From NCBI GenBank assembly GCA_041662585.1, contig JBAZSG010000005.1:4181-68180 (forward strand): DNA of 64,000 nucleotides, given 5' to 3'. The stretch comes from Patescibacteria group bacterium (lineage in GTDB: Bacteria; Patescibacteriota; Patescibacteriia; UBA1558; GWA2-36-10). A program made the translations under genes and the position numbers. The notes below the pieces were generated by a model, which worked only from the letters and a program-made list of their open reading frames with translations, was not told the origin of the DNA and did no database searches. Shown piece after piece: positions 12,178 to 61,468 of this stretch; the first letter of the stretch is position 1, and every line of letters starts with the position of its first letter.

Positions 12178-12178
12178 T

Positions 12179-12763: not shown

Positions 12764-12805
12764 TCAATTTGCGAGATAAGCATAGATTAGTGTAAAATAC
12801 ATATA

Positions 12806-14526: not shown

Positions 14527-14530
14527 ATAT

Positions 14531-15301: not shown

Positions 15302-15304
15302 CCT

Positions 15305-23375: not shown

Positions 23376-23643
23376 ATATTTAGTATTTTGTGCGTTAACT
23401 ATAAGATATTTTAGCTTATTTGACAAGAATAAGCATTTAGGTTTAAAAATGCTATTTTTTGTTTATTTTAAAATTCGCTATACTATATATATGGAAAGTA
23501 GACAAAGGAATATATTGATATCACTAGGTATCATTGTTGTAGTTGTTTTTATATTTACCTTGATAGTTAGATACGGCATGCATATGTTTTTTGATGATTT
23601 TGATTATTTTAAAGCTTTTTAAATATTATTAATAATAAAAAAT

Positions 23644-27976: not shown

Positions 27977-27977
27977 T

Positions 27978-28601
27978 ATGGATAAAGGAAAATTTATAGT
28001 AATAGAAGGAGGAGATAAATCTGGTAAAAGTACCCAGATTGCTTTGTTAAAAGATTATTTAGAATCAAAAAATATTGATTTTGTTTTAACTAGAGAACCA
28101 GGTGGCAAAGGATCAGTGATAGCTGAAAAGATTAGAGCCATAATTTTGGACAAAAATCACAAAGAAATGGATTCACGAACAGAGCTATTATTATTTTTAG
28201 CTTCTCGGGCTCAACATGTAGCAGAAATAGTAAAACCGGCCTTGGAAGAAGGTAAGGTAGTAGTATGTGATCGTTTTGATTCTTCTACTTTTGCTTATCA
28301 AGGAGCAGCTCGCAAGCTTGATGTAGAAACAATAAAAGCCATAAATAATTGGGCTAAGTATGGATTAGAAGCGGATTTGGTTATTTATTTGGATATTTCT
28401 CCAGAAGAAGCCGAAAATAGACGTCGTGGTGATAAACATGATAGACTAGATAGAGAGACACAAGAATTTCATCAGGCTGTTAGACAAGGATATTTAGCTC
28501 AAGCCAAAAACAATAATAAGTGGTTTGTAATATCAGCTGTGGGAGAAATAAATGATATTGCTAGTAAGATTTCTGATAAAATAATGATTTTGCTTAAATA
28601 G
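27978..28601 (+). CDS. tmk: Thymidylate kinase
   Basis: FIVIEGGDKSGKSTQ P-loop and DRF motif (DRFDSS). The start was placed at the ATG at 27978. Confidence 0.85.
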   Translation: MDKGKFIVIEGGDKSGKSTQIALLKDYLESKNIDFVLTREPGGKGSVIAEKIRAIILDKNHKEMDSRTELLLFLASRAQHVAEIVKPALEEGKVVVCDRFDSSTFAYQGAARKLDVETIKAINNWAKYGLEADLVIYLDISPEEAENRRRGDKHDRLDRETQEFHQAVRQGYLAQAKNNNKWFVISAVGEINDIASKISDKIMILLK

Positions 28602-41921: not shown

Positions 41922-42809
41922 TTGTATAATTATTATACTATGGATGATTATAAACCAATTAGTCAAAAAGAATTAGAAAGAGGGTATTTTATAGTTACCC
42001 ACCGTTTATTGATAAATAAAATAGTTTTTGGCTTGGTTATTTTTATTTTAATTATTTTGTATGGAGCATTAATAGTTATGACCTTTAATTATTTTAGAGG
42101 GCCGAGTTTTAATGCTTCAGCACTAGCTATACAAAACAATACTTTTGATTGGTCTACTTATCATAATTCTCGGGCTCCAGAAGAAATAACTATATCAAAA
42201 CCAGAGTTTACATCATTAGGTGATAGACGATACAATATTACTGCTTTGGTAGAAAATAAAAATAAAAATTGGGCTGTCAAAAGTATGGATTATCATTTTG
42301 TTTCTCAGGGAGAAAGTACACCCTCTAAGACTGCTTTTATAAATCCAGATGATAAAAGATTATTGGCTTTGACGGCTTATCAATCAGATATAGCTATTAG
42401 AAATCCAGAGCTTGTAGTTTCCAATTTAGAATGGTACCGTATAGATGATACTTTTCCAGTTATCAATATAGATATTTCAAATATTGTCTTTCACGCTGCT
42501 TCTAGAGAAACCGTTGATGGTGTGACTAGTGATTTGCCAGCTAGAGTATCATGGCAGGCTTATAATGATTCGGTTTATAATTTTTGGGAAATAGATTGGC
42601 AAGTAGCTCTATACAATGGTGATAAATTGGTAGCTATCAATGAATTAAAATCTAAAGATTTTTTGGCTTTAGAAAATAGGGAATTAGAAACAGTTTGGTT
42701 GAATAGTTTACCAAGGGTTACTAGAAGCAATATATTTCCACTGCTTAATAAGTTGGACAAAAGTATCTTCAAAGATATTTATGTAACTCCAAAAGTTGAA
42801 AATAGATAA
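41922..42809 (+). CDS. Hypothetical N-terminally anchored protein
   Basis: 295 aa with one TM segment and no recognised motif. Confidence 0.35.
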   Translation: MYNYYTMDDYKPISQKELERGYFIVTHRLLINKIVFGLVIFILIILYGALIVMTFNYFRGPSFNASALAIQNNTFDWSTYHNSRAPEEITISKPEFTSLGDRRYNITALVENKNKNWAVKSMDYHFVSQGESTPSKTAFINPDDKRLLALTAYQSDIAIRNPELVVSNLEWYRIDDTFPVINIDISNIVFHAASRETVDGVTSDLPARVSWQAYNDSVYNFWEIDWQVALYNGDKLVAINELKSKDFLALENRELETVWLNSLPRVTRSNIFPLLNKLDKSIFKDIYVTPKVENR

Positions 42810-43977: not shown

Positions 43978-44658
43978 ATGGCAGAATTTATATTAGAAGC
44001 AAATGAACGTAAAGCTGACAAACAAAGCCAGCTTACAGATATCAGAACAAGCAGCCGAGTACCTGGTATTATTTATGGTTTTTCTCAAAAACCAGTATCT
44101 ATAGATGTAGATTATAGAGAGTTACTCAAGGTATTAAAAGAAGCCGGTACTAGTAATATTATAAGTATTAAAGTAGGTACCAAAGAAATAAAAACTATTG
44201 TTCGTGAATATCAACAAAATCCAGTTAGTGATAAGATTACTCATGTTGATTTTATGGCTGTAGATGCCAAGAAAAAAGTTAATACTAAAGTTCCTTTGGA
44301 ATTTATTGGTGAGTCAACAGTCGTTCGTGAACAAGGTGGACAATTAAATAAAAAAGCGCTCACTGTCAATGTTACATGTCTACCAGCTGACCTACCAGCC
44401 AAGATTGAAATTGATATTTCTGTTTTAAAAGAACTTGGTCAAAAGTTGTTAATTAGAGATTTAAAAGTTGATGCCAAAGTAACTATTACCAACGATCCAA
44501 ATGATCCAGTGGTTAATGTAACTATGCCAAAGAAGATGCAGTTGAAAAGTTTGGCTGAAGAAGCTGCTGATACTGCTGCTGCCGAAGCTGCTACTGCCGC
44601 TGCCGAAGCTGCTACTACTACTGCTGAAGGTGAAGTAAAAACTGAAGAGAAAAAATAA
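43978..44658 (+). CDS. rplY: 50S ribosomal protein L25 / general stress protein Ctc
   Basis: RVPGIIYG N-domain plus Ctc C-domain. Ala/Glu/Thr-rich acidic tail. Confidence 0.8.
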   Translation: MAEFILEANERKADKQSQLTDIRTSSRVPGIIYGFSQKPVSIDVDYRELLKVLKEAGTSNIISIKVGTKEIKTIVREYQQNPVSDKITHVDFMAVDAKKKVNTKVPLEFIGESTVVREQGGQLNKKALTVNVTCLPADLPAKIEIDISVLKELGQKLLIRDLKVDAKVTITNDPNDPVVNVTMPKKMQLKSLAEEAADTAAAEAATAAAEAATTTAEGEVKTEEKK

Positions 44659-44674
44659 TAAATATATTAAATTT

Positions 44675-45697
44675 TTGATGATGAGTCATCGTTCAAAAAT
44701 ATATCTTGCAATAACTGTCATTTTTGTGGCAGTTATTTTGCTTGGGATAGGGATTTTTAATTTTTTATCTCAAAACAAAAAGATTATAAAACCAGTTATA
44801 AATAATGATATAAAATCACCTATTGTATATCGACATATTTTAAATGGTTCTATTTTAGAAAATCCAGATCAAGAATTTTTTGCTATTGCTATAATGTTTG
44901 ACAATGCTTATGATGCTAGACCTCAGTATGGATTGGATAAGGCAGATATTGTTTATGAAGCACTGGCCGAAGGAAATATTACTAGACTTTTGGGTATTTT
45001 TGATAGCCGACAAAATATAGATAAGATTGGGTCAGTTCGTTCAGCTCGTCCGTATTTTATGGACTGGGCAGATGAGTATGCTGGTATTTATATGCATGTT
45101 GGAGGATCTCCTGATGCTTTGGCCAATATCAATAATTATAGTTTTTATAATATTGATCAAATAGGAGTCGGTGAAATATATTTTTGGCGTGACAACAATT
45201 TGGATGCTCCTCACAATGTATTTACCTCATCTTCAAATTGGCTCAGAGTAGGGGAAATAAAAGAGATTTCTAAGATCAATACAAATATAAATTGGAATTT
45301 TGTAGAAAGCGAAGACAATTTGGGCATTGATTTTTCATTGGATTACAATGAACCTTATAAAGTGGATTGGAAGTACAGTGATCAGTTACAAGCTTATTTA
45401 CGCTGGCAAGGAGATAATAAATTTATTTACAATACTGGTGAGCAAGTTAGAGCTGCTAATGTCATTGTCCAAATAGTTGATTCTAAAATTATTGATGAAA
45501 AAGTAAGAAGAAAAATGAATACCCAAGAAGGTGGTCAAGCTTTTGTATTTAATAAAATTGGTAGACAAGACGGAACTTGGGAAGTGGTAGATGGTCGTAC
45601 TAGATTTTTTGACGCAGAAAAAAACGAGCTAAAGCTCGTGGCTGGTCAAACTTGGGTCCAGGTCATACCGACAGAGGAGTATTTAATTACTGAGTAA
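44675..45697 (+). CDS. DUF3048-family extracytoplasmic protein
   Basis: N-terminal TM segment. MFDNAYDARPQYGLDKADIVYEALAEGNITRLLGIF...SVRSARPYF matches the DUF3048 core. Confidence 0.6.
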   Translation: MMMSHRSKIYLAITVIFVAVILLGIGIFNFLSQNKKIIKPVINNDIKSPIVYRHILNGSILENPDQEFFAIAIMFDNAYDARPQYGLDKADIVYEALAEGNITRLLGIFDSRQNIDKIGSVRSARPYFMDWADEYAGIYMHVGGSPDALANINNYSFYNIDQIGVGEIYFWRDNNLDAPHNVFTSSSNWLRVGEIKEISKINTNINWNFVESEDNLGIDFSLDYNEPYKVDWKYSDQLQAYLRWQGDNKFIYNTGEQVRAANVIVQIVDSKIIDEKVRRKMNTQEGGQAFVFNKIGRQDGTWEVVDGRTRFFDAEKNELKLVAGQTWVQVIPTEEYLITE

Positions 45698-46532
45698 TTT
45701 TAACTACGCGAATATTATTGGCCAAGTCTTTTACAAAATTTATTCTAGCTTTAGGGAGATTTTTTAAAGTCTCTTTTTTTATTTGTTCAACTTGCTGGGG
45801 ATCAATTTCCAATAATATTAAATATTGCTTGTTTAAATATTTTGGTATTTGTTTTAAAAGTTTTTTATAATGGTCCAAGCCATCTTTACTAGAAAATAAA
45901 GCAGTCTTAGGTTCTTTTTTAATAGAAGGCTCTTTCATTTGACTAGCAGTAAGATATGGAAGATTGGCTATTACTATATCAAATTTAGTTTCAACATTAT
46001 TTAATAAATTTGATTTTATAAATTTAACTTTATTTTTTAAGTGTAATTTACGAGCATTACTCTTGGCAACTTTTAAAGCTTTAGTAGAAATATCACAAGC
46101 AGTATAATGAGCTTGGCATTTATTATTTTTGGCTATAGATAATATCAAAGCACCAGAACCAGTACCAATGTCTATTATATTTTGATTTTTGCCAGCTGGC
46201 GAATTTATAAATTTTAAAGCCTCTTCTAACAATATTTCGCTGTCAGGACGAGGAATCAAAGTGTGTTTGTTTACCAAAAAATTTAGATTAAAAAATTCTT
46301 TAGAGCCCTTGAGATAAGCTAGTGAATAATTGGCCAATCTTTTATTTAATAGTTTTTTAAAAGCAAGTATATTAGAGCGGTTTAGTTTTTTATCAGGATT
46401 TTTGTATATATAGGCTATATTTTTGTGCAAAGCCAAAGCCATTAGCTGATCTATTTCAGCAATTTCTAATTTATCTTTATATTTTAAGATTAAATTTTTT
46501 AGGCTTGTTTTTGTGCTTTGGCCACTTCCCAT
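45687..46532 (-). CDS. prmC: Release-factor glutamine N5-methyltransferase PrmC/HemK
   Basis: SAM motif [11 protein letters not shown] and substrate motif IANLPY (an NPPY variant). Immediately downstream of and overlapping prfA. Confidence 0.7.
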
Positions 46533-47557
46533 AGAGGTTTTATTATTGGCATTAGATCACCATCAAGTATTTTATCCAAATTGTGCAAAGATAATTTGAT
46601 GCGATGATCGGTCATTCTGTCTTGGGGAAAGTTGTAGGTACGTATTTTTTCTGATCTATCACCACTGCCAATTTGGCTTTTTCTTTCAGCTGCATTTTTG
46701 GCATTATTATCTGCTTCTATTTTGGCCAGTATTCTAGAACGCAAAATAGTCATAGCTTTTTCTTTGTTTTGTCCTTGTGATTTTTCATCTTGGCAAGAAA
46801 CCACAGTATTGGTGGGTAAGTGAGTAATACGCACGGCAGAGTAAGTAGTATTTACTGATTGGCCACCATTGCCAGAAGAACAAAAAGTATCAATACGAAG
46901 ATCTTTGGGCTCTATTTTGAGATCAACTTCTACTGCTTCTGGCATCACAGCCACTGATGCAGCACTAGTGTGAACTCTGCCAGCTTTTTCGGTTTCTGGT
47001 ACACGTTGGACACGATGGACACCACTTTCGTATTTAAAATATTTATAAACATTATCACCGTCAACTTTTGCAATGATTTCTTTGAAGCCTCCAATCTCAG
47101 TACGGTGAGAAGACATTATTTTTATTTTAAAATTCATTTCTTCAGCAAAACGTGAATACATACGGAAAAGCTCAGCAGCAAAAAGAGCAGATTCGTCACC
47201 ACCTGTACCAGCTCGGATTTCCAAGATTATATTTTTTTTGTCATTGGGGTCATCTGGATTTATCAATTCTTCAAATTTTTCTTCGTTTTCATTTATTCTT
47301 TGTTCCAAAATATTTATTTCTTCTTGAGTCATAGCTATCATCTCATCATCAGTTTCTGTTGCTATGGATTCTTCAAGACTGGCCAGATCATGAGAGTCTT
47401 TGTTGATGATTTCAGCCAAAGCTAAAATTATCTTGATTTCATTGTATTCTTTACCAAGACGAGACATCTGGCTAGCATCAGAGACTATGTCTGATTTTTG
47501 CATTTGAGCTTCTAGCTGATCTGATTTTTGTTTGTATTCGGTTATGTTTATTTTCAT
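46499..47557 (-). CDS. prfA: Peptide chain release factor 1
   Basis: GGQ motif ([11 protein letters not shown]) and RF1-type PxT tripeptide ([10 protein letters not shown]). 352 aa. Confidence 0.9.
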
Positions 47558-47615
47558 ATCACTATTATTATAATCTATTATCGCCCAGAGGGCGACCCCG
47601 CTTTGCGGGTTAACA

Positions 47616-47650
47616 AAAAAGCTCCTATAAATCTAAAGAGAGCTTTTTTG
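47616..47650 (-). terminator. Hairpin with T-tracts on both sides, downstream of rpmE
   Basis: AAAAAAGCTC-13-nt loop-GAGCTTTTTTG. Confidence 0.4.
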
Positions 47651-47666
47651 TAAAAGTTTGCTTATG

Positions 47667-48023
47667 TTATTTTTTTGTAGCTTTGGTTTTTGCCTTTACA
47701 GTACTTGGTTTGGAATTTTCTTTGATTTCAGCTTTAATTTTGGCTTTTTCTTTGGCTAGTTTTCTTTCACCGGCCTTGGCTTTTTTGACTGCCTTACCTT
47801 TTCTTACTTTAGAAACTTTGGCTTTTTGTTCAGTCAGTTTCTTGAATCTATCTACACGACCAGCTGTATCAACCAATCTTTCTTTTCCACTATAAAAAGG
47901 ATGGCAGTTTGAGCAAATTTCAACGTGGATTTCTTTAACTGTAGAACCTACAGAAAATTTATTACCACAAGCACAAACTACTTTGGCGTCAGCATAATAA
48001 GTTGGATGAATGTCTTTTTTCAT
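47667..48023 (-). CDS. rpmE: 50S ribosomal protein L31 with a ~50-aa Lys/Ala-rich C-terminal extension
   Basis: [10 protein letters not shown]...CxC...CxxC core, then the [35 protein letters not shown]... tail. Confidence 0.85.
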
Positions 48024-48675
48024 AATATTTTATAATTTTTAGGTCTGGGATTTAATCCACCGACTAAATTAATACCCCAACAGAATAACAGCTTAAGCGT
48101 AAAATGTCAATAGTAGGCATGAAAAATAAATATTATATTATCCCTAGCTAAGGATTTTTATTATTTTTTGTTGGGTTTCTTGTATAGTTTGTTGATTATT
48201 AAGCCATTGTTTAGACAAGGCATTGTCTTTATTGTTTTGTGGGGGAATAAAATTTTTATATATTTTTAGTTCTTTATTTTTTATAATCTTATTTACTATG
48301 TTGATTTTTTCTAAGGGCTCAGCATTTTTAAGTTTGCTTATAAATTTTTTATCCACTTTTGATTGCCAATTTTTTATGTCAATTTTTGGCAAAGTTTTTA
48401 ATAGCACCTTTATTTTACAAGACGCTTAAATGTGTTACAATTTTACTATGAAAAAAAAGTTGAAAAAATTTTTAGCCAAAGTTCTAAAGCTGGTTTATTA
48501 TTGATTGATGCAGATAACAAAAACATAAAAGATATAAAGAAAGAAATACGCGATGCTATTTCTGTAAAAATGCAAAACTATTTTTTTGATAATATTATAC
48601 ATTTTATGGATAATAGAGAGTTTGGTAGAGAATTTTTAAAAAAGTATAGTTCTAAGTAGTTAAAATATATATATT

Positions 48676-49107
48676 ATGGAAAATGTAAAATTAAATATTG
48701 CAGTGCATGTGTTTTTGAATAAAGATAATAAATTGTTACTTTTGAAAAGAAAAAACACTAAAGTATTTGACAATATGTGGTCTGTACCATCTGGTAGATT
48801 GAATTCAGGAGAGGGTATTTTGAAAGCAATTATTAGAGAAATAAAGGAAGAAGTTGGAGTTGATATCAAAGTAGAAGATTTGTCAGAGCCTTTATTTATG
48901 CATCACAAAGACGAAAGAGGAGAGCGTGTTTATGTATTTTTTATTTGTCACAATTGGCAAGGCGAGCCAGAAAATTTGGAAAAAGATAAATGTGAGAAAA
49001 TTGAATGGTTTAATATTGAACATTTTCCAAAAGACTTGTTACCACACATTAAGGAGGCTTGGTTACAAATGCAAAATAAAAAAATATATATTGAATATGG
49101 TTTTTAA
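48676..49107 (+). CDS. NUDIX hydrolase
   Basis: Nudix box GRLNSGEGILKAIIREIKEEVGV. Confidence 0.75.
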   Translation: MENVKLNIAVHVFLNKDNKLLLLKRKNTKVFDNMWSVPSGRLNSGEGILKAIIREIKEEVGVDIKVEDLSEPLFMHHKDERGERVYVFFICHNWQGEPENLEKDKCEKIEWFNIEHFPKDLLPHIKEAWLQMQNKKIYIEYGF

Positions 49108-49295
49108 AATATGAAAGTTTTTTTTGATTAGATATGTTGAGACTAAATAGAATTTGAAAAACTATATTACAGATGATAATAAAGATTTTTCTTTATCAGA
49201 GCTTGGTATCAATACAGCCAATAAATTAAAAATTTTTTTTGGATAAGTATAAAATAGATAGTATATATAGCGCTCCTCGCCGTTGTTTTTCAAAT

Positions 49296-49334
49296 GACTG
49301 TTCGGCCCCAGATGCGCACAAAATGCGTGTCTGG
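49296..49334 (+). other. 13-bp GC-rich hairpin in the long rpsB upstream region
   Basis: CCCCAGATGCGCA-caaaa-TGCGTGTCTGGGG (two G.U pairs). Further hairpins at 49427-49477 and 49478-49498 precede the rpsB RBS. Confidence 0.4.
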
Positions 49335-49521
49335 GGTCTTCTTAATATATAAAACCCTTGATTTATTTCAAATTTTGTGTTAGAGTATTGCTACTTAATT
49401 AATCACAACTATTTTCTATATTATTTAGTTTACCTTCCATCCGAAGCCTTGGCGAAGGATGGCTGCTAAATAGGGAAATAGGGGTAAACTCATTTAAAAA
49501 TGAGTTAAAGAAAGGAAAAAT

Positions 49522-50202
49522 ATGAATTTACCAACACTTGAAGAGTTGTTGAAAAAAGGTGTCCATTTTGGTCATAAGACCTCAAAAAGATACCCAAAAG
49601 CCAACTCTTACATTCACACTCAACGCAACGGTGTTCACATTATTGATTTACAAAAGACAGTTAAAGCTTTGGAAATTGCTTTGGCCTTTGTAGACAAGAC
49701 TGTAAAAGCTGGTGGCGTTATTTTATTTGTCGGTTCAAAAAAACAAGCCAAAGACATTGTAAAAGAAGCTGCATTAAGTTGTGGCATGCCGTATATAGTA
49801 GGTCGTTGGTTGGGTGGTACTTTTACCAATTTTGAAAATATTGTTAAATTGACAAAAAAATTGGAAAGACTAGAAAGAGAAGAAGAGGATGGTACCTGGG
49901 AAATGTATACCAAAAAAGAGCAAGTTACTTTCAAAAAAGAACTTAACAAACTCTTGGATAATGTAGGTGGTATAAAAAATATGAAAAATTTGCCAAAGGC
50001 GATTTTTGTAGTAGATCTTAAAAAAGAAGGTACAGCTGTAGCTGAGGCCAATAAGATGGGTATTCCAGTCATTGCTTTGGCTGATACCAATGTCAACCCA
50101 GAATTAGCTACTTATCCAATCCCAGCCAATGATGACGCTATTAAATCAATTGAGGTCATCACTGATTTGATTGCTGAGGCAGTCAGAAACGCACGTAGTT
50201 AA
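49522..50202 (+). CDS. rpsB: 30S ribosomal protein S2
   Basis: LLKKGVHFGHKTSKRYPKA... 226 aa. Confidence 0.9.
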   Translation: MNLPTLEELLKKGVHFGHKTSKRYPKANSYIHTQRNGVHIIDLQKTVKALEIALAFVDKTVKAGGVILFVGSKKQAKDIVKEAALSCGMPYIVGRWLGGTFTNFENIVKLTKKLERLEREEEDGTWEMYTKKEQVTFKKELNKLLDNVGGIKNMKNLPKAIFVVDLKKEGTAVAEANKMGIPVIALADTNVNPELATYPIPANDDAIKSIEVITDLIAEAVRNARS

Positions 50203-50239
50203 TTATATTTTAAATATTAGAGAGTAAACAAATAAAAAA

Positions 50240-51010
50240 ATGTCATTAGAATTGATCAAAGAAATTAGACAAATCACCGGTGCTGGTATAAGTGATGTAA
50301 AAAAAGCATTGGATGAAGCTGGTGATAGAGAAAAAGCAATTGAAATACTTCGCAAAAGAGGTCAAAAAATTGCTGCTAAAAAAGCAGACAGAGAAGTAAA
50401 AGAAGGCGTGATTGCTTTTAGCAAGCAAGGCAATAAAGTAGCTGTAGTAGCACTAGCCTGCGAAACAGATTTTGTGGCCAAAAACGAAGATTTTCAAACC
50501 GCTGTTGGTGAATTGGCCAACAAATTGATGGAAATGGGTAAAACTGATTTTGAGTCTTGGGCTACCAAATTTATACAAGATGAACTTATAGTAAAAATTG
50601 GTGAAAATTTAGTTTTAACAAATTTTGATATTTTTGTAGGTGAAGTAGTGGGTACTTATTTGCATTCAAATAATAAAGTAGCTTCTGTTGTAGTATTAAA
50701 GGGTGGTAGTGAAAGTCTAGCCAAAGACATTGCCATGCATGCTACGGCTATGGCTCCTAAGTATTTAAAGCCAGAAGATGTCCCAGCTGAAATAGTGGCC
50801 AAAGAAAAAGAAATCTATACCGAACAACTTCAAAAAGAAGGTAAGCCAAAAGAGGTGCTTGCTAAAATATTAGAAGGTAAAGTAAATAAGTTTTATACTG
50901 ATGTATGTCTTCTAAAACAAGCCTATATCAAAGATGATAAAAAATCTATTGAGAAATTATTGGAAGAAAATAAAGCCACTATAGAAAAATTTCAGTATTA
51001 TTCATTATAA
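50240..51010 (+). CDS. tsf: Elongation factor Ts
   Basis: UBA-like N-terminus (IKEIRQITGAGISDVKKAL) and dimerisation domains. 256 aa. Confidence 0.9.
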   Translation: MSLELIKEIRQITGAGISDVKKALDEAGDREKAIEILRKRGQKIAAKKADREVKEGVIAFSKQGNKVAVVALACETDFVAKNEDFQTAVGELANKLMEMGKTDFESWATKFIQDELIVKIGENLVLTNFDIFVGEVVGTYLHSNNKVASVVVLKGGSESLAKDIAMHATAMAPKYLKPEDVPAEIVAKEKEIYTEQLQKEGKPKEVLAKILEGKVNKFYTDVCLLKQAYIKDDKKSIEKLLEENKATIEKFQYYSL

Positions 51011-51012
51011 TC

Positions 51013-51040
51013 AAAACCCCCTAAGTTAAGGGGGTTTTTA
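51013..51040 (+). terminator. Rho-independent terminator after tsf
   Basis: aaaaCCCCCT-aagtta-AGGGGGttttt. Confidence 0.55.
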
Positions 51041-51105
51041 TTTTACTTAAAATAAGAAGAGGCATGCAAATCGTGCTTGAATACCTCTTCGAAGATGTAA
51101 AGATG

Positions 51106-51309
51106 TTAGGATATATATACATTGCCATCTTTTTTGAAAAGAAACCCCGTGTCACAGAGTCTAGTTATCTCATTGTAGACATGTCCAAATCCCATGTCTG
51201 TTTCTGACGCTATTTTCCAAGCCAATTCATAAGGACACACGAGATTATTTCCTAAACGTTTTTTGAATTCTTCCTTGAATTCATTATCGTTCATTTTACA
51301 TCCTTTCAT
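51106..51309 (-). CDS. Small hypothetical protein
   Basis: 67 aa with no recognised motif. Confidence 0.3.
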   Translation of the reverse strand: MKGCKMNDNEFKEEFKKRLGNNLVCPYELAWKIASETDMGFGHVYNEITRLCDTGFLFKKDGNVYIS

Positions 51310-51446
51310 TGAAGGAATTATTATAAGAACGTTATTTAAAATTACTATTATAGTATTACTAAATGATGTTGGTTTGTCAATTTTAAGTATCTTGCTAATT
51401 TAACAACAATTTGACATAATTAGGATAAGATTTTTAAAACAAAACA

Positions 51447-52163
51447 ATGAATAAAAAGCGTATAGTTATAAAACTATCTGGAGAAGTATTTGAAGTTGGC
51501 AATCAAGAGGCTAATCTTGATTTTCCCAGTATTAAAAAAGTAGCTATTAGTTTAAAAAAACTGGTTAAAGCAGGTTATCAAGTAGGTGTAGTAGTGGGAG
51601 CTGGCAATATATTTCGAGCTCGGATGATCAAAGGTTCTGAGATTGATAGAGTGGCTGCTGATCATATGGGTATGATGGCTACTTCTATCAATGCTTTGGC
51701 CTTACAAGCCACTCTGGAAAAAGAGGGTCAAGATGCTAGAGTATTATCTTCTTTTTCTATTCCAGCCATTATGGAGGATTATATTTATAAACGAGCCATT
51801 AATCATTTGAAAAACAAGCGTATAGTCATTTTTGCTGGGGGAACTGGTAATCCATATTTTACTACTGACACTACTTTAGTTCTTCGCGCACTGGAAATAG
51901 GGGCCAATAATATCTATAAAGCCAGCAATGTTAATGGTGTTTATGATATGGATCCTGATAAAAACAAATCAGCCAAATTATACAAAAAATTAAGCTATAG
52001 TGAAGCTTTGAAACAAGATCTTAAAATAATGGATGGTACAGCTTTTGCTCTAGCCAGAGAAAATAATTTACACTTAAGTGTTTTTAAATATAGTCCAGCC
52101 AATATTATAAAAGCAGTTGTTGGCAATAGCATTGGTACCAAAATTTCTAATGAAAGTCGTTAA
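51447..52163 (+). CDS. pyrH: UMP kinase
   Basis: RIVIKLSGE...GVVVGAGNIFR...FAGGTGNPYFTTDT. 238 aa. Confidence 0.9.
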   Translation: MNKKRIVIKLSGEVFEVGNQEANLDFPSIKKVAISLKKLVKAGYQVGVVVGAGNIFRARMIKGSEIDRVAADHMGMMATSINALALQATLEKEGQDARVLSSFSIPAIMEDYIYKRAINHLKNKRIVIFAGGTGNPYFTTDTTLVLRALEIGANNIYKASNVNGVYDMDPDKNKSAKLYKKLSYSEALKQDLKIMDGTAFALARENNLHLSVFKYSPANIIKAVVGNSIGTKISNESR

Positions 52164-53031
52164 AGTACAATTTCATAAATTAGATAAAGAATATTTTTTT
52201 CTACCAGAATTTACTGAAACACCAGGTCTTGATATCAAGATTGGCGATAGCGTTGTAGTTGAGACATCTTTGGGTCAAGATGTGGGAAGGATTACTGCTT
52301 GGACAGAATGGGAATCTCCAAAAGCCATTGAAAAAAATAATTCAGAAAAAAACAATACTGAGTTTATTCAAGAAAATATTTCTGATGTCAAAGCAATGCT
52401 TAGACCACTCCAAGAAGAAGATCTAGATATATTAAGAGTGCAAAAAAAAGAAGGAGTAAAAAAATTTTTGGAGTGTAAAAAATTGATAGACAAATATGAA
52501 CTCAAATCCATGAAGCTGATTGATATGGCTGAGTCATATGATAACAAACGGATTACTTTTTATTTTATAGCAGATTCTAGAGTTGATTTTAGGGATTTGA
52601 TAAAAGAATTGGTACAAAAATATCACAAAAAAATTCGTTTACAACAAGTAGGTGTGCGTGATGCAGTAAAAGTCAGTGGTGATATTGGTTCTTGTGGTAT
52701 GCCTTTGTGTTGTAAAGCATGGCTTAGTACCATTGGCAGTGTTACACCTGATAGTATCAAAAATCAAGAACTTAGTCATCGAGGACCAGATAGACTGAGT
52801 GGACCTTGTGGACGACTCAAATGTTGTTTACGTTTTGAAGAAGAGGCTTATAAGTACAGTAGAGAAAATATGCCCAAAGAAGGTGATTTTATAAAAACAG
52901 CTGCTGGATTGGCCAAGGTTGTGGCAGTCCATCCTATAAAACAAACAGTTAATTTGGATATAGATGGTAATATAGTAGAATATCCGTATTTGGAAGGTAA
53001 GCTGTGTGAAAAAAATGAAGAATGTAAATAA
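52117..53031 (+). CDS. PSP1/RicT (YaaT)-family protein
   Basis: PSP1 C-terminal region DSRVDFRDLIKELVQKYHKKIRLQQVGVRDAVKVSGDIGSCGMPLCCKAWL...GPCGRLKCCLRFE. Confidence 0.7.
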   Translation: MLAIALVPKFLMKVVKVQFHKLDKEYFFLPEFTETPGLDIKIGDSVVVETSLGQDVGRITAWTEWESPKAIEKNNSEKNNTEFIQENISDVKAMLRPLQEEDLDILRVQKKEGVKKFLECKKLIDKYELKSMKLIDMAESYDNKRITFYFIADSRVDFRDLIKELVQKYHKKIRLQQVGVRDAVKVSGDIGSCGMPLCCKAWLSTIGSVTPDSIKNQELSHRGPDRLSGPCGRLKCCLRFEEEAYKYSRENMPKEGDFIKTAAGLAKVVAVHPIKQTVNLDIDGNIVEYPYLEGKLCEKNEECK

Positions 53032-53033
53032 AA

Positions 53034-53061
53034 ACAGCTCTTCGCAGGGGGCTGTTTTTTT
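53034..53061 (+). terminator. Terminator hairpin with a T7 run, running into the TGgTATAAT box of gap (53061-53069)
   Basis: aaaaACAGC...GCTGTttttttt. Confidence 0.5.
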
Positions 53062-53100
53062 GGTATAATGTTAATGTAATAAATCAAAAAATAAAATAAT

Positions 53101-54144
53101 ATGAAAAAAGCAAATCCCGCAAAACGGGACTCCGCTACGCGGAGGAAAAAAATAAGAGTAGCGATCAATGGTTTTGGACGTATTGGCCGAGCTGCTTTCA
53201 AAATAATAGGTGATAGCAAAAAGTATGAAGTAGTAGCCATTAATGATTTGGCTCCAGTAGAAACTTTGGCTTACCTATTAAAATACGATACAGTCTATGG
53301 TCGGTATAATAAAAAAGTAAGCTACAGTGCCAACAATATAATAGTCAACGCCAAAAAATATCATGTCACTAGTCAAAAAGAACCTCAAAAACTTCCTTGG
53401 AAAAAATTGAACATTGATGTAGTACTAGAATGTACTGGATTTTTTGTAAAAGATGGAGCAGCTTCAGCTCATATTCAGGCTGGCGCTAAAAAAGTCATTA
53501 TATCTGCTCCAACCAAAGGAGAAGGAAATGTAGCTACTTTTTTGTTGGGAGTAAATGAAAATAAATATGGCAAACAAAAAGTAATTTCCAATGCTTCTTG
53601 TACTACTAATTGTATTGCTCCAGTTGCTCAAGTGCTAGTATCTAAGTTTGGAGTAGCCAAAGCTATGATGACTACTATCCATTCATATACTGGTGATCAA
53701 GCACTAGTTGATGGTCCACACAAAGATTTTCGTCGTGGCCGTAGTGCTGCTGCCAATATGGTACCCACTACTTCTGGAGCGGCTATTGCTACAGCCAAAG
53801 TAATTCCTGAATTAGAAGGATTATTTGATGGGCTAGCAATACGTGTACCAACTCCAGTTGTATCTTTATCTGATTTTACTTTTGTTCTCAAAAAAGATGT
53901 AACAGTCAAACAAATAAATGATGCTTTGATCGCAGCTTCCAAAAGTAAAAGATACCAAGGAATATTAGGCGTAACTGACGAGCCAGTAGTTTCATCTGAT
54001 TTTATTGGTGATTCTCGTTCATCTATTGTTGATTTGTCACTTACCAAAGTAGTAGGAGGCAACATGGTCAAGATCATTGCTTGGTATGATAATGAATGGG
54101 GATATTCTGCTAGGTTGGTAGATATGATAGGTCAAATTTCTTAG
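53101..54144 (+). CDS. gap: Glyceraldehyde-3-phosphate dehydrogenase
   Basis: NGFGRIGR and the active-site ASCTTNCIAP. 347 aa. The ~17-aa N-terminal extension overlaps two GC-rich mRNA hairpins. Confidence 0.9.
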   Translation: MKKANPAKRDSATRRKKIRVAINGFGRIGRAAFKIIGDSKKYEVVAINDLAPVETLAYLLKYDTVYGRYNKKVSYSANNIIVNAKKYHVTSQKEPQKLPWKKLNIDVVLECTGFFVKDGAASAHIQAGAKKVIISAPTKGEGNVATFLLGVNENKYGKQKVISNASCTTNCIAPVAQVLVSKFGVAKAMMTTIHSYTGDQALVDGPHKDFRRGRSAAANMVPTTSGAAIATAKVIPELEGLFDGLAIRVPTPVVSLSDFTFVLKKDVTVKQINDALIAASKSKRYQGILGVTDEPVVSSDFIGDSRSSIVDLSLTKVVGGNMVKIIAWYDNEWGYSARLVDMIGQIS

Positions 54145-54149
54145 ATTTT

Positions 54150-54180
54150 TAATAAAACCCTCTAGATATAGGGGGTTTTT
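54150..54180 (+). terminator. Terminator after gap
   Basis: aaaaCCCTCTAgatATAGGGGGttttt. Confidence 0.45.
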
Positions 54181-54233
54181 ATATTGCCAAAACTTAGCTT
54201 TGTGTTACAATAAAATAACCAAGATTAAATAAT

Positions 54234-55616
54234 ATGAATATTAGATTATATAATAGTTTAAGCAAACAAAAAGAAGAATTTAAGCCCATCAAGAAAAAAG
54301 AGGTGGGTCTTTATACTTGTGGACCAACTGTTTAGGATTATCCACATATTGGCAATTTGATGGCCTATACTATTTGGGATGTATTAAAACGAATACTCAA
54401 AGTCAAAGGATACAAGGTCAAACATATCATGAATATTACCGATGTGGGACATCTGACTTCAGACGCTGATGAGGGAGAGGATAAATTAGCCAAAGCTAGT
54501 CGTAATTCTGATCAAAATGCTTGGCAGATAGCCGAGTTTTTTATCAAAGTATTTAGAAATAATTTAGCAGCTTTAAATATTGATGAACCAACTAAATTTT
54601 TAAGAGCGACAGATACTATTGAAGAGCAAATTGACTTTGCTAGAATTTTGGACAAAAAAGGATATTTGTATAAGATAGAAGATGGCATGTATTTTGATAC
54701 TTCAAAAATAAAAGATTATGGCAAGATAGCCAATCTAGCCAATGTTGATCTAAAAGAAGGAGCGCGGGTAGAAAAAATAAAAGGAAAAAAGCATCCAACG
54801 GACTTTGCAGTTTGGAAATTTACTCCAGAAGATATCACCAGAGATATGGATTGGGAGTCACCTTGGGGACTTGGTTTTCCAGGTTGGCATTTGGAATGTT
54901 CAGTTATGAGTCGTATGGAGCTGGGCGATACTTTTGATATTCATACTGGTGGTATGGATCATTTGACTGTTCATCATCCCAATGAAATGGCTCAATCAGA
55001 AGCAGTGACTGAAAAATTACAAGCCAATTATTGGTTGCACAATGCTTTTGTAAAAGTGGATGGTGGGAAAATGTCCAAATCTAATGGTACTTTTATCACT
55101 TTGGAAAATATTCGAAACAAAGGTTTTTCTCCAATCGCTTTTCGTTTTTTGATTTTACAAAATCATTATCGTAGTCCACTCAATTTTACTTTTGAATCTT
55201 TGCAAGCTGCTCAACATGGTTTGATTGCCATAATTCGTGAAATTGCTTTTTATGGCAAACCAAAAGGATCTTGCAAGGAACTAGAAGAAGAATTTTATGA
55301 AGCCATCAGCAATGATCTCAATACTTCCAAAGCTGTATCAATATTACAAAAAGTTATTGATTCTGATCACAAAAATAATGCCAAGATGGCTACTATACTC
55401 AAGATGGATGAGGTACTTGGCTTGTGTTTAGAGGGCTTGGCTTATCATGCTCTGGAAATTGGTGATGAAGCCCAGATTATCTTGGAAGAAAGAGCCAAAG
55501 CTCGCGCTAGAAAAGATTGGGCAGCAGCAGATAAGCTCAGAGACAAATTGACAGTTTTGGGCGTAGAAGTTCAAGATACGCCTGAAGGACAAAAAGCTGT
55601 AGAAGTAAAATTATAA
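54234..55616 (+). CDS. cysS: Cysteinyl-tRNA synthetase interrupted by an in-frame TAG at codon 34
   Basis: [48 protein letters not shown]... The TAG (54333-54335) replaces the conserved Tyr of CGPTVYD. The HIGH-like motif, KMSKS and the anticodon-binding domain are present downstream. TAG is used as a genuine stop elsewhere in the window, for example lgt. Confidence 0.8.
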
Positions 55617-55619
55617 TTT

Positions 55620-56357
55620 ATGCAAGTAAATAAAAAACAAATAGAATTTTTGATCAAACTCAAAAAAAAGAAATATCGTGACGAGCATCAAAAATTTTTG
55701 TTCGAAAATCCTAAAGTAATTTGGGAAGAATTTTCCAATCCTTTACTTGATTCAGTTTATGTTACAGACAATTTTTATAAAGACAATGAAGATAGGATGG
55801 TTTTTAAGACCATCTATCGTTTATCTGAAAAAGATTTAAAAAAAATATCAAATCAAGTAAATCCTTTGGGGATGCTAGCTTTATTTGATATGCCTCATCC
55901 CAAAAAGTTTATATTCAAATCAAAGCATGTGTTGATTTTGGATAATATAGCTGATCCTGGTAATATGGGCACTATTATTCGTACGGCCGATTGGTTTGGT
56001 TTCAATCATGTATTTTTGGGTACGGGCTGTGTAGAAATCTATAATCCAAAAGTAGTAGCAGCTAGTATGGGTTCTATTTTTAATATTTCTATCAATGAAG
56101 AAGTTGATCTCAAAAATTTTATAAAAGATTTAAAAAATGAAGCTTACCAGATAATAGTAACTGATTTGATGGGAGATGAATTTAGTATCAACAAAAAAAA
56201 TAATATAGCTCTCATCATTGGCAATGAAGCTAAGGGGGTAGATAAAAAATTGATTGCTATGGCTGATCAGCGTTTTAAGATAATGAAGTCAGGCAAAGCT
56301 GAATCTTTGAATGCCGCTGTAGCCGCAGGCATTGTGATGAATAAAATAAAGTTTTGA
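55620..56357 (+). CDS. TrmH/SpoU-family RNA 2'-O-methyltransferase (RlmB-like)
   Basis: LILDNIADPGNMGTIIRTADWFGF and the C-terminal ESLNAAVAAGIV motif. The conserved position after cysS matches the Bacillus yacO arrangement. Confidence 0.8.
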   Translation: MQVNKKQIEFLIKLKKKKYRDEHQKFLFENPKVIWEEFSNPLLDSVYVTDNFYKDNEDRMVFKTIYRLSEKDLKKISNQVNPLGMLALFDMPHPKKFIFKSKHVLILDNIADPGNMGTIIRTADWFGFNHVFLGTGCVEIYNPKVVAASMGSIFNISINEEVDLKNFIKDLKNEAYQIIVTDLMGDEFSINKKNNIALIIGNEAKGVDKKLIAMADQRFKIMKSGKAESLNAAVAAGIVMNKIKF

Positions 56358-56413
56358 CGACTTAAATTTTTTAGATTATAATACTATAACATAATAATTT
56401 AATATATAAAATT

Positions 56414-56647
56414 ATGAAGAAGAAAAGTGAAGTAACTAATTTGGAAATTTTGGAGGCTCTCAATGAATTTTCTACATCTGTAGACAAACGTTTTGATGGC
56501 GTAGACAAACGTTTTGATGGCGTAGAGAGTAGATTGGCTCATTTAGAGTTTAATCAAGAAGAAATTTTATTAAAGCTTGATAACAAAGCTTGCAAATTAG
56601 ATGTTATAAATTTAACAAAAAGAGTAGAGCTTTTAGAAGGTAAATAA
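56414..56647 (+). CDS. Small coiled-coil protein with an internal VDKRFDG direct repeat
   Basis: 77 aa. The 21-nt duplication gtagacaaacgttttgatggc appears twice in tandem. Confidence 0.3.
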   Translation: MKKKSEVTNLEILEALNEFSTSVDKRFDGVDKRFDGVESRLAHLEFNQEEILLKLDNKACKLDVINLTKRVELLEGK

Positions 56648-56850
56648 TAATATTAAATAAAATAACTTGTGATTAATTTTACGGGTTATTTTTTGTTTAC
56701 CTAAAAAGAGGAGAGGGTGTTGACAAGATTTTTTTAGAAGTATATATTTAATATGAAAGTATAAGACGGCTATTAACTTAGCGACGGCTTATAAAAATGT
56801 CCTCTGACAATTTATCATTTATTTTCAACATCTTGAAAGGAAGTATAATC

Positions 56851-57564
56851 ATGATTCAGGCAATAGTTTTAGCAGCCGGTATTTCTACCAGAATGCGTCC
56901 ATTAACAAATAATGTGCCTAAACCGATGCTTGAATTAGCTGGTAAGCCAATTTTGCATTACGTGATAGAAAATTTACGAAATGCAGGCATCGAGCATATT
57001 ATTATTACTACTCATTACTTACCATTGGTTATTAGAGATTATTTTGGGAACGGCTCTCAACTTAACGTAAAAATAACTTATAGCTATGAAGAAAATCTTC
57101 TCGATACAGCTGGTTCCCTTAAAAAATTGGAATCATTATTAGAAGATAATTTTCTAGTTTGTGGCGGACATTTTATTTTACCGACTATTGATTTTAATAG
57201 TTTAATAGAGTTCCATCATAGTATGAGTGGTATAGGCACTATTGTGTTTAAAAGACTGGATGAATTAGAAAATTTAAAGTTTTTTGGACAAGGGATATTC
57301 GATGATGAGGAAAGGTTAATATACTTTGTTGAAAAACCTAAGGAAGCTATTAGTCGCAATATACACACCACTTATCAGATTTTTAACAAGAGAGTATTGA
57401 AATATATTCCTAAAAATAGACCTGTTTCTATTCCGGATTTCCTTATTCCGCGACTATTGTCTGACGGAGAGTCATTGTATGGGCACTTTACAGACAGTGA
57501 ATTAATTAATGTATCTACTATTGAGCTTTATAAGAGGGCTCAAGAAAAGATTGAAAGGATGTGA
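56851..57564 (+). CDS. Sugar-phosphate nucleotidyltransferase (NTP_transferase family)
   Basis: IVLAAGISTRMRPLTNNVPKPML signature. Start probably the ATG at 56851. Confidence 0.7.
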   Translation: MIQAIVLAAGISTRMRPLTNNVPKPMLELAGKPILHYVIENLRNAGIEHIIITTHYLPLVIRDYFGNGSQLNVKITYSYEENLLDTAGSLKKLESLLEDNFLVCGGHFILPTIDFNSLIEFHHSMSGIGTIVFKRLDELENLKFFGQGIFDDEERLIYFVEKPKEAISRNIHTTYQIFNKRVLKYIPKNRPVSIPDFLIPRLLSDGESLYGHFTDSELINVSTIELYKRAQEKIERM

Positions 57565-57568
57565 AATA

Positions 57569-58411
57569 ATGTGTACTCAGATAGCTAATTTAGATTGGTT
57601 TATTACCAGAAAATGTGGGCAAAGAAAATATTGTAAATTTTGTTTTGCACCATGGAATGTTTTTCCACCAGATACCACACTCAGTGGAGCTATGGATATT
57701 TGTGAGCGCATTGGCGAGCTTAAAATTCCTATTGTGACATTGTGTGGTGGAGAACCGAGTGAACATCTTTATATAGCAGAAGTTGTACAAAAACTGTATA
57801 AGCTTGGTATTCAGATTACGCTATATTCTAATATAGCGTGTCAGGAAAACATGGAGATAATCAAATGTTTATTGCCAAATATTCAAATTTTATCACTCCC
57901 TATAGATGCGGTCAGTTTGGATGTGTTACCAAAAATGCGTGGCGTACATCAATTTGAGACTATGTCATCTATGCTCAAGTATTTAGTATGTATTTTACAT
58001 AGGCCTAAAATTAAGGTTGGTACTGTAGTTACCAAACAGAATGTTTCAGATTTGGATAATATTTTAGAATTTTTACTAAAGGCAGAGATTATTGATGTTT
58101 GGAGAATATATCAGTATTCACCCTATGGTAAACAAGCTAATATTATTGATAATTTCTTGTTAGAAGATGAGATTTTTGAGAGGGAAATGATTCGTATCAA
58201 AAATCAAACAAGAAATTGTGGTCTAGATATATCATTTCGTAATAGACGTGATAATATCGGTTATTGTCATATTATGGACTCTCAAGGTAATTTTTATTAC
58301 TACAAGGAAGAATATATAAATTTGGGAGTTACTATATATGACACGCCTAGTCAGATACTGAAACATTATGATGAGAATAGAAATTATCATCAAAAGGGTT
58401 GGCAACAATGA
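57569..58411 (+). CDS. Radical-SAM-like protein with a Cx5Cx2C cluster and GGEP motif
   Basis: FITRKCGQRKYCKFCFAP followed by LCGGEPSEH. RBS AAAGGA overlaps the stop of the upstream gene. The Cys spacing is non-canonical. Confidence 0.5.
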   Translation: MCTQIANLDWFITRKCGQRKYCKFCFAPWNVFPPDTTLSGAMDICERIGELKIPIVTLCGGEPSEHLYIAEVVQKLYKLGIQITLYSNIACQENMEIIKCLLPNIQILSLPIDAVSLDVLPKMRGVHQFETMSSMLKYLVCILHRPKIKVGTVVTKQNVSDLDNILEFLLKAEIIDVWRIYQYSPYGKQANIIDNFLLEDEIFEREMIRIKNQTRNCGLDISFRNRRDNIGYCHIMDSQGNFYYYKEEYINLGVTIYDTPSQILKHYDENRNYHQKGWQQ

Positions 58412-58457
58412 TAGGTATATAATAAATGCACTAAGATAAGAGATTATTTTGGTGCAT

Positions 58458-58940
58458 TTACTTAACTATTTTGATTAGTTTTTTTATAGCTGGATAAATA
58501 GTTCGATGGGTATTTGACTTTGTGATTTGTTTAAATGGTGTCCAATTCACACTACTTATTTCATTACCATCGGCTGTATTAATTATAGATTTATTCTGTT
58601 TTTTATCAAATAGGGAAGACTTAAATACCATTATTATGGAATTATAAAATTGTTTGGACATACGATTATAAAAATTTTCTTGAGAAAGATAGAATGGTAT
58701 ATCAGCATCAATATTTATTTTGTAACCAGTTTCTTCATAACATTCACGTTTTAATCCTTCTAATATAGTTTCATTTTTTTCTACAGCTCCGCCAGGTAAT
58801 TCAAATAAAGTATTCCAAGTTGGTATTACAGTCAGTACTTTATTATCTTTAATGATCAGGGCATAGACTGATATACGCCAATTTACACTTTTTCCTTTGG
58901 GAAGTTTATATTTATTACCATTAGCATCTAAAAATTCCAT
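58458..58940 (-). CDS. NUDIX hydrolase
   Basis: Nudix box LPGGAVEKNETILEGLKRECYEETGY. Confidence 0.75.
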   Translation of the reverse strand: MEFLDANGNKYKLPKGKSVNWRISVYALIIKDNKVLTVIPTWNTLFELPGGAVEKNETILEGLKRECYEETGYKINIDADIPFYLSQENFYNRMSKQFYNSIIMVFKSSLFDKKQNKSIINTADGNEISSVNWTPFKQITKSNTHRTIYPAIKKLIKIVK

Positions 58941-59020
58941 AAAAGTATTATTTAATTATATAAATCATAATAGCACAGTACTATAAAAAATAAAAATTTA
59001 ATTTTACTTAATATATTTTT

Positions 59021-59536
59021 ATGCAATTCATATACGACAAAAAAATAGACAATGATTGTCATCAGAGAATTAAGGCCTGTGATGATATTTTTGGTGAGAA
59101 AATCAGAAAGGAAATTTATCCAGTTGATAATAATATTGTTGATAAATTTTCTCAAAAATGGACTGATGAGGTTGATATAACTTTTAAAGCAGGTATTAAA
59201 GAAATATTTAAAAAAGAATTACCCGAAGATTTTATTTGCTATATTATTTCTAGTCAATATTCTATGGACGTAGAAGATGGTATAGCCATATCAGTTTCTT
59301 CTTTAAACGTGATGATAAGAATGATTTGTCATGAAGCAAATCACTACATGTTTCGCAGAAGTGATTATAAAGATAAATATTTTCCAAATATGGATATAGA
59401 AGATGCTAAGGAAATATTTACTATTGTCAATAACATTTATTTTAAAGATATTATGGAAACACCAGACAATGGTTGGAAAAAATTTTGGACGCAGAGAAAA
59501 GAATTTTTAGAAATATGGCAGTCTAATAATCTATAA
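59021..59536 (+). CDS. Hypothetical protein with an HExxH motif (possible small metallohydrolase)
   Basis: MICHEANHYMF. 171 aa. Confidence 0.3.
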   Translation: MQFIYDKKIDNDCHQRIKACDDIFGEKIRKEIYPVDNNIVDKFSQKWTDEVDITFKAGIKEIFKKELPEDFICYIISSQYSMDVEDGIAISVSSLNVMIRMICHEANHYMFRRSDYKDKYFPNMDIEDAKEIFTIVNNIYFKDIMETPDNGWKKFWTQRKEFLEIWQSNNL

Positions 59537-59566
59537 AACATTCTATATTAAAATGTATATAAAAGC

Positions 59567-59734
59567 ATGATAAATAAAATTAGAAAATTTAATATATTAT
59601 TTTTACCAAGTATGCTGCTATTATTTGTTTGTTCAGCTATGCTAGCTATAATATGGGCAATAGGATATTCAGGCTATTGGATATTTTCTAGATTTAAATT
59701 AAATACAGAGAAGAAAAGCAATTTTGTGAGTTAA
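59567..59734 (+). CDS. Small hydrophobic ORF, family copy A (55 aa)
   Basis: MINKIRKFNILFLPSMLLLFVCSAMLAIIWAIGYSGYWIFSRFKL. ~85% identical to the N-terminus of the ORF at 60309. Confidence 0.35.
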   Translation: MINKIRKFNILFLPSMLLLFVCSAMLAIIWAIGYSGYWIFSRFKLNTEKKSNFVS

Positions 59735-59864
59735 TTAGAAAAAAACAGGCAAACTAATAATTAGTTTGTTAAAAAATGAAGAAGAAAAACGTTTTTGGGA
59801 GCTAAGTTAGTCTCCCCAGTTGGTTCAATCCACTGGGGAGACAGAAAATTATTCAAAATTAATT

Positions 59865-60299
59865 ATGATTTCAAGTAAAAAATTAGAAAATTTTAATAAA
59901 AAATTTGATGTAGTATCTTTGTTTGTAATTGTTGGTAATAAAATATTACTTTTGAAAAGGCACGATGACAAGCCACAGCCTGGATTGTGGGGACCTCCTG
60001 CTGGCAAAGTAGATGAAGGTGAATCTTTAAAACAAGGAATGATTAGAGAAACTTTTGAAGAGTCTGGTGTAAGTATAAAAAACGATGAATTAAAGCATTT
60101 TAAAAAAGAATATTTTGTTAGACATGGGGACGTAGATTTTATTTTTCATGTATTTGCAGTATATCGTGATGATTTTATGGAAGTAAATATAAATGGCACA
60201 GAGCATATTGAATATGGATGGTTTGATATGCAAGAGGCATTAAATATGGATTTGGTAGAAGATGAATATATTCCATTAAAAGATTATTTTAATTTATGA
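59865..60299 (+). CDS. NUDIX hydrolase
   Basis: Nudix box GPPAGKVDEGESLKQGMIRETFEESGV. Start placed at the ATG at 59865, because a 10-bp hairpin occupies 59804-59834. Confidence 0.7.
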   Translation: MISSKKLENFNKKFDVVSLFVIVGNKILLLKRHDDKPQPGLWGPPAGKVDEGESLKQGMIRETFEESGVSIKNDELKHFKKEYFVRHGDVDFIFHVFAVYRDDFMEVNINGTEHIEYGWFDMQEALNMDLVEDEYIPLKDYFNL

Positions 60300-60308
60300 G
60301 ATTTATAT

Positions 60309-60539
60309 ATGATAAATAAAATTAGAAAATTTAATATACTATTTATTCCAACTATGCTCTTATTATTTTTTTGTTCTATTTTATTAACTATTATTTGGGC
60401 AGTAGGTTATGGGTGTTATTGGGTATTTTTTAGATTTAAATTAATGATTAATTGTTATATATGTAAAAATTTAGGAAGTAGAAGTCCCGCGGAGCGGGAT
60501 CGCCCTTTGGGAGAAAAAGCAATTTTGCGGGTTAATTAG
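60309..60539 (+). CDS. Small hydrophobic ORF, family copy B (76 aa)
   Basis: MINKIRKFNILFIPTMLLLFFCSILLTIIWAVGYGCYWVFFRFKL... Confidence 0.35.
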   Translation: MINKIRKFNILFIPTMLLLFFCSILLTIIWAVGYGCYWVFFRFKLMINCYICKNLGSRSPAERDRPLGEKAILRVN

Positions 60540-60718
60540 AAAAAAACAGGCAAACTAATTATTAGTTTGTTAAAAAATGAAGAAGAAAAGCAATTTTGTG
60601 AGTTAATTAGTTGTTCTTTGACAAAAATATCTATCTTTGAATATAAAGATGATGAATAAAAGCGATTTTGGCAGATAACTAGTCTATGTTATACTTTATT
60701 TATAATTAATTAAAATAC

Positions 60719-61297
60719 ATGAATAAGAAGACAATAGGTTTATTAAGCATGCTCGTTTTTATATTGTTAATCATTTGGGGTTATAATAGTTTATATAATC
60801 CAAAGGTTGTTGATAATATCAATACTAATTCTGATAATAAACCAGAAGAAGTAGACACTAGTGATTGGAGGGAGTATAGGAATGAGGAATTGGGATTTGA
60901 GTTTAAGTATCCGAGTGGTTGGATGATGGAGGAAAATAAGAATTTTGATAATAATGAAGAAATAGGATATATTTCATTTAGAGTGGCTACTACCACAGCT
61001 AATCCTTATACTTTTGGGACATCAAGAGTTTTAATAACAATATTTCCCAATCCTGAAAATATAACACCAGAAGAGATAATAATTAAATATAATAATTTTG
61101 CAAATGATGTACTAAATAGTCGGTTTTTAGGAGAGGTAATTTTAGATAACAAAATAGTTAAAAAATATAGCATTCCTGGTTATGTAGAGCTACCATCATT
61201 AATATTTAAATATAAACAGATGGTTTACGAAATATCTTATACTTTAGGAGAAGAGGAGTTAAATAAAATTTTATACACTTTTAAATTTATAAACTAA
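60719..61297 (+). CDS. Hypothetical membrane-anchored extracytoplasmic protein
   Basis: N-terminal TM segment, 192 aa. Confidence 0.4.
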   Translation: MNKKTIGLLSMLVFILLIIWGYNSLYNPKVVDNINTNSDNKPEEVDTSDWREYRNEELGFEFKYPSGWMMEENKNFDNNEEIGYISFRVATTTANPYTFGTSRVLITIFPNPENITPEEIIIKYNNFANDVLNSRFLGEVILDNKIVKKYSIPGYVELPSLIFKYKQMVYEISYTLGEEELNKILYTFKFIN

Positions 61298-61468
61298 AAT
61301 AAAAAATTTATATTCAAAGATAGAGAGTTTAAACAATAAAGTTTAGGCTCTTTTTGTGTCCTTTGACAATTTAAACAATAAACAAGAAAGGAGGTTTTAT
61401 AGAGTGTTCTATTGCTTTGTGTTTTTTGGTAATTCTAACTGTAAATTTTGTAGTAAGGAGATTTTGCA

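Follow-up and report, generated by a model that had tools for sequence, protein, structure and literature searches.

The cysS gene carried by this MAG of a Komeilibacteria-like member of the Patescibacteria is interrupted by an in-frame TAG, and we judge, with a probability of roughly two in three, that this stop codon arose through a local error of assembly or sequence. The base is genuinely in the deposited record, and among the assemblies compared, all from one essentially clonal population, only this one has the TAG. Because three near-identical assemblies read a Tyr codon at this position, the TAG most likely reflects a defect rather than a case of recoding; at most it would be a private mutation. 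Here, the window means the whole stretch of 64,000 nucleotides that was analysed. The features in and around the gene are the following:

54234..55616, plus strand: cysS (cysteine--tRNA ligase), 460 codons and a TAA, assigned from TIGR00435, CysRS structures and translation.
54333..54335, plus strand: in-frame TAG in place of the invariant Tyr codon of CGPTVY, with G at 54335 versus T in three assemblies.
54326, plus strand: companion substitution, A here versus C in three assemblies, giving CCA versus CCC (Pro, silent), 9 bp upstream of the nonsense change.
54357..55616, plus strand: longest ORF 3' of the TAG, with a TTG start and 419 aa; the public starts are ATT 54348 (NCBI) and ATG 54360 (JGI).
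54184..54211, plus strand: promoter-like site TTGCCA-16 nt-TACAAT, with TG before the second hexamer, a consensus match only.
54159-54175: terminator-like hairpin after gap and 5' of cysS, a consensus match only.

Translation from the ATG at 54234 to the TAA at 55614-55616 gives a frame of 460 codons whose single interruption is the TAG at 54333-54335, after which the frame resumes as DYPHIGN... and runs to the TAA without a further break. When Tyr is placed at the TAG, the predicted CysRS scores above the cut-off of the TIGR00435 cysS equivalog in a profile search (419.7 bits versus 340) and aligns end to end with the solved structures 8qhp (E = 5e-97), 3sp1 and 1li5. The CysRS motifs, namely C29 within CGPTV[Y], HIGN at residues 38-41 and KMSKS, are matched in 8qhp, in 3sp1 and in 78 relatives, which were drawn from species-representative genomes and share 46-81% protein identity with this CysRS. 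CGPTVY is invariant among these relatives, and the residue aligned with the TAG is Tyr in all 78 (encoded by TAT in 62 and by TAC in 16) and a stop in none. The closest other species are Komeilibacteria-type MAGs, whose CysRS proteins are 80-84% identical and all full-length at 460-463 aa; a protein scan of genome contigs also returned another species as its best CysRS match, at 81% identity. In its full-length match, its CGPTVY, HIGN and KMSKS motifs and its 460 aa, the gene product is like the bacterial class I CysS (TIGR00435, PF01406 tRNA-synt_1e plus PF23493 CysS_C), from which it differs in that codon 34 is TAG instead of TAT, in this record only. Chance would not place an in-frame stop on an invariant codon of a cysS that is otherwise perfectly conserved. 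An earlier sequence-only reading of this DNA had described the in-frame TAG as lying at a conserved Tyr codon, and both the translation and the unanimity of the relatives confirm that description.

No marks of decay were found in cysS when frameshifts, extra stops and excess missense changes were looked for; the 459 other codons give the same residues as the intact allele, and the only other nucleotide change relative to that allele is silent. A tblastn search revealed no second cysS-like locus within the 64-kb window, and no Pfam label among the neighbouring genes suggests SepRS/SepCysS. CysRS is normally essential. The hairpin that follows gap and the promoter-like site ahead of the ATG at 54234 would, as sequence matches, fit transcription of the full-length cysS frame.

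The intact allele was found in three comparison assemblies, ENA ERZ27249449 (contig k141_305749, 702 kb), Logan SRR6484324 and Logan SRR18595301, although ERZ27249449 may derive from one of the two Logan runs, in which case the three intact assemblies may represent two independent samples. The SRR18595301 assembly was located by means of the neighbouring gap gene. All three have T at 54335 where the window has G, reading TAT versus TAG, and both Logan contigs side with the ENA contig at 54326 as well as at 54335 (CCC...TAT). The uninterrupted frame that is lacking in this record is present in these three assemblies of the same population. When the 702-kb ENA contig is compared with positions 44234-64000 of the window, just 2 mismatches occur in 19,767 bp; both lie inside cysS, and they are 9 bp apart. 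The upstream member of this pair, the silent change at 54326, had escaped the sequence-only reading. The gene order gap, cysS, SpoU-methylase is the same in the sister assembly. At the protein level, the 460-aa entry MFA6604721.1 at NCBI falls in the same 90% cluster as the window CysRS, equals it at the 459 other residues and has Tyr at the stop; its coding DNA lies on the 702-kb ENA contig and on a Logan contig of SRR6484324. The comparison with orthologues and sister genomes that had been proposed as a check on the sequence-only reading accordingly gives TAT in three assemblies of the same population and Tyr in every one of the 78 relatives. That reading had also named reads showing TAT as the observation that would count against it, and three near-clonal assemblies that read TAT come close to such an observation. 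In the JGI metagenome contigs there were 0 matches to a degenerate 46-mer covering both alleles or to an exact 35-mer just downstream, the organism being absent from that collection, and no paper was found in the literature under the run accession SRR6484324.

Over the longer span that could be aligned, positions 15851-64000, the window differs from the ENA contig by 5 substitutions in about 48 kb and by a 90-bp repeat difference, and by nothing else. Positions 6453-11913 are identical to the Logan contigs of both runs, and positions 1-6452 and 11914-15850 lay outside the comparison. The identical segment includes a type IV pilus-like cluster at 6649-10183 on the plus strand, in which the gene for a 425-aa protein with a Hint domain precedes two pilin-like N_methyl genes and a PilX_N gene, and the cluster is accordingly the same in the Logan contigs from the two runs. 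Besides the pair in cysS, a second pair of substitutions is private to the window:

42494..42501, plus strand: two substitutions 7 bp apart in the ORF 41922-42809, where ERZ27249449 and Logan SRR6484324 both differ from the window in the same way.

At 42494 the window has C versus T, which is silent (His), and at 42501 it has T versus G, which gives Ser in the window and Ala elsewhere. The clustered signature of this pair resembles that of the pair in cysS, and here too, where a third assembly is available, the window is the outlier. The fifth substitution stands alone at 23476 (C here versus T in ERZ27249449), in the intergenic sequence just upstream of smpB (22923-23426, minus strand). Were the 5 substitutions in about 48 kb independent of one another, about 0.004 pairs within 9 bp would be expected; two were observed, and each pair is therefore the result of one event. 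The 90-bp difference involves a 45-bp tandem repeat at 18755-18923 (3.8 copies, 97% matches) inside the ORF 16657-19527 on the plus strand, which encodes 956 aa and has no Pfam match. In ERZ27249449 the repeat is shorter by two units and the ORF encodes 926 aa, which could reflect either real variation in copy number or collapse of the repeat in one of the assemblies.

We infer a technical cause for the lesion in cysS, mutation being the alternative, from a change that is observed to be private and clustered with another, in a gene that is intact in every other assembly. The lesion comprises two changes, 54326 C>A and 54335 T>G, and is confined to one assembly. If the cause is indeed technical, the gene of the population would be an ordinary cysS with TAT (Tyr) at codon 34, the sole copy in the window and one expected to be essential. 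A possible source of such a lesion is a consensus patch built from reads that were wrong or gave poor support. The truncated CysRS proteins in the public databases result from the lesion, and no recoding, suppression or internal initiation would be needed for cysS. Paired substitutions that arise as one event are expected from a bad read or path, and the 45-bp tandem repeat, a typical trouble spot in assembly, supports an error. Chen et al. (2020, Genome Res 30:315, PMC7111523) reported that local assembly errors are present in uncurated MAGs, found 13 of them in one 1.13-Mb CPR genome, one of which was within a repeat-containing gene, and pointed out that such errors spread incorrect protein sequences into databases. 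The changes in the window are like those errors in being private and tightly clustered in an uncurated CPR MAG, and the likeness extends to a discrepancy in a repeat-containing gene and to a wrong public protein entry. The errors in that study (PMC7111523) were defined by a lack of perfect read support, whereas the likeness of the cysS lesion to them rests on assemblies and not on reads.

Some considerations speak against an error and for a real, recent nonsense allele, in which one multinucleotide mutation or micro-recombination would have changed both bases in a sub-lineage that dominates one sample, or was picked by the assembler there. Short-read assemblers seldom fix substitution errors at good coverage, and the 134-kb contig that carries the TAG suggests that coverage was reasonable. 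Multinucleotide mutations do occur naturally, TAT to TAG is a single step, and the changes at 54326 and 54335 are linked in one haplotype. The base stands in the record as deposited, where two annotation pipelines took it as given; moreover, the window also differs in repeat copy number and in the Ala/Ser change, and may belong to a slightly different strain. Such an allele would be a null or a severe hypomorph, most likely a null and transient, and it would have struck the sole copy of cysS in the window. CysRS is normally an essential enzyme. The rest of the predicted protein is 100% identical to the intact form and has accumulated no further decay, the stop is absent from the three other assemblies, and double hits would account for 2 of the 3 substitution events in 48 kb, which is unusual for natural mutation. 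On this evidence we consider a real nonsense allele unlikely, while still giving it appreciable weight, and if it were real, an essential gene would have a nonsense polymorphism, which is a modest curiosity. Its carriers would either be a transient deleterious variant or stay alive on a small fraction of UAG read-through by a near-cognate tRNA-Tyr or tRNA-Gln, with insertion of Tyr restoring the wild-type CysRS. A bolder form of the same idea is that the only cysS copy of an ultra-small Patescibacteria symbiont has a genuine amber allele that rose to a high frequency in one natural population, whose cells survive through misreading of UAG by near-cognate tRNA-Tyr or through an unlinked suppressor. 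This strikes us as highly improbable; if true, the case would show an essential gene persisting in nature through the leakiness of a stop codon. Possible origins of the double substitutions were also considered. A templated origin from an ectopic donor was rejected, as each variant 12-20-mer occurs only once in the window when both strands are searched, and so was quasi-palindrome correction, as a nearby GTGGA...TCCAC inverted repeat, examined by eye, gains just one Watson-Crick pair. Inspection of the five variant sites by eye for a common motif, such as a methylation motif, gave nothing convincing.

The capacity of the organism to terminate at UAG bears on whether the stop could be decoded as sense, and the window contains the following relevant genes:

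46499..47557, minus strand: prfA (peptide chain release factor 1), intact; NF001859 476 bits versus 400, TIGR00019 462 versus 423.
45687..46532, minus strand: prmC (release-factor glutamine methyltransferase), intact; TIGR03534 232.6 bits versus a cut-off of 199.1.
15305-16111: lgt, ended by TAG.
24236-24805: YgjP/DUF45 gene, ended by TAG.
27930-28601: gene ended by TAG.
42815-43909: gene ended by TAG.
53101-54144: gap, ended by TAG.

Two further explanations would have the record encode a working synthetase in spite of the stop. In one of them the UAG is read through or suppressed by design, by a tRNA-CUA suppressor or by context-driven recoding, and a full-length CysRS results. The stop does sit exactly on the Tyr codon of a frame that is otherwise perfect, and a bare in-frame TAG in an otherwise intact essential gene is the one feature shared with programmed recoding as seen in amber suppression, in pyrrolysine-type UAG decoding and in TAG-reassigned codes. 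Unlike in those systems, however, the TAG of cysS is not conserved even within its own population, being absent from three near-identical assemblies as well as from all 78 orthologues, and it occurs once in 64 kb: under table 11 unbroken ORFs cover the window densely, no other gene has an in-frame TAG, and no gene but cysS was seen to be split. UAG is recognised by RF1, which is retained here together with an intact PrmC. TAG is in use as a stop: among the 53 ORFs with 150 codons or more it terminates 5, namely lgt, ygjP, tmk, ftsW and gap; the sequence-only reading had called TAG an ordinary stop on the strength of lgt and the DUF45 gene, which holds and now extends to three other long ORFs. 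No tRNA-CUA was found within the 64-kb window or 1.6 kb beyond it, tRNA-Asp being the sole tRNA in the window. Programmed read-through of the cysS TAG is therefore very unlikely and close to refuted. The other explanation, implied by the public annotations, is a restart at TTG 54357 or ATG 54360 that yields a CysRS shortened at its N-terminus yet functional. It is true that an ORF of 418-422 aa exists and is annotated as a cysteine--tRNA ligase, and the sequence-only reading had rightly noted TTG 54357 as an internal start site, for the longest post-stop ORF begins there. The product, however, would be without residues 1-41, and with them would go both the HIGN signature and Cys29 of CGPTVY, two elements shared by every relative and by the solved structures. 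In the E. coli CysRS structures 1LI5 and 1U0B, the counterpart of Cys29 is Cys28, a zinc ligand, and HIGN corresponds to the class I HIGH motif for ATP binding. A product that lacks both could not act as a synthetase. In addition, the 78 relatives, which have a complete N-terminus, all begin about 33 codons upstream of the site, and there is no Shine-Dalgarno-like sequence before 54357. We regard a functional truncated enzyme as extremely unlikely. Among the four readings that had been offered from the letters alone, the comparisons agree with a consensus or assembly error and with a nonsense variant of recent origin in the population, while read-through or suppression and TTG initiation found no support.

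A local assembly or sequence error, which remains our preferred explanation of the TAG, has consequences for the public record. The NCBI entry MFA6307920.1 ('MAG: cysteine--tRNA ligase [Patescibacteria group bacterium]'), from a 134,357-bp contig, is a protein of 422 aa that is 100% identical to the frame and begins with the ATT at 54348, and the JGI call for the same contig is a protein of 418 aa that begins with the ATG at 54360. Judged from the frame, products starting at 54348-54360 are gene-calling artefacts of the in-frame TAG, and the two database proteins deserve a data-quality flag as truncated artefacts of one doubtful base. If they were read literally, surveys of completeness or metabolism would count a functional CysRS as missing from this genome or would model the N-terminus of the enzyme wrongly. 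Comparison of assemblies from the same population offers a cheap test for lone in-frame stops in MAGs, to be applied before recoding is invoked.

The window also contains features that lie outside the question of the cysS stop. Directly downstream of smpB there is a tmRNA gene at 22532-22918 on the minus strand, which matches Rfam RF00023 over its full length with 117 bits and was missed by ARAGORN in both of two runs. Secondary BLAST matches revealed a direct repeat of about 98 bp with about 91% identity between its copies at 59714-59811 and 60515-60611. The former copy lies directly before a small NUDIX-like ORF (59820-60299), and the latter lies about 100 bp before another small ORF (60719-61297).
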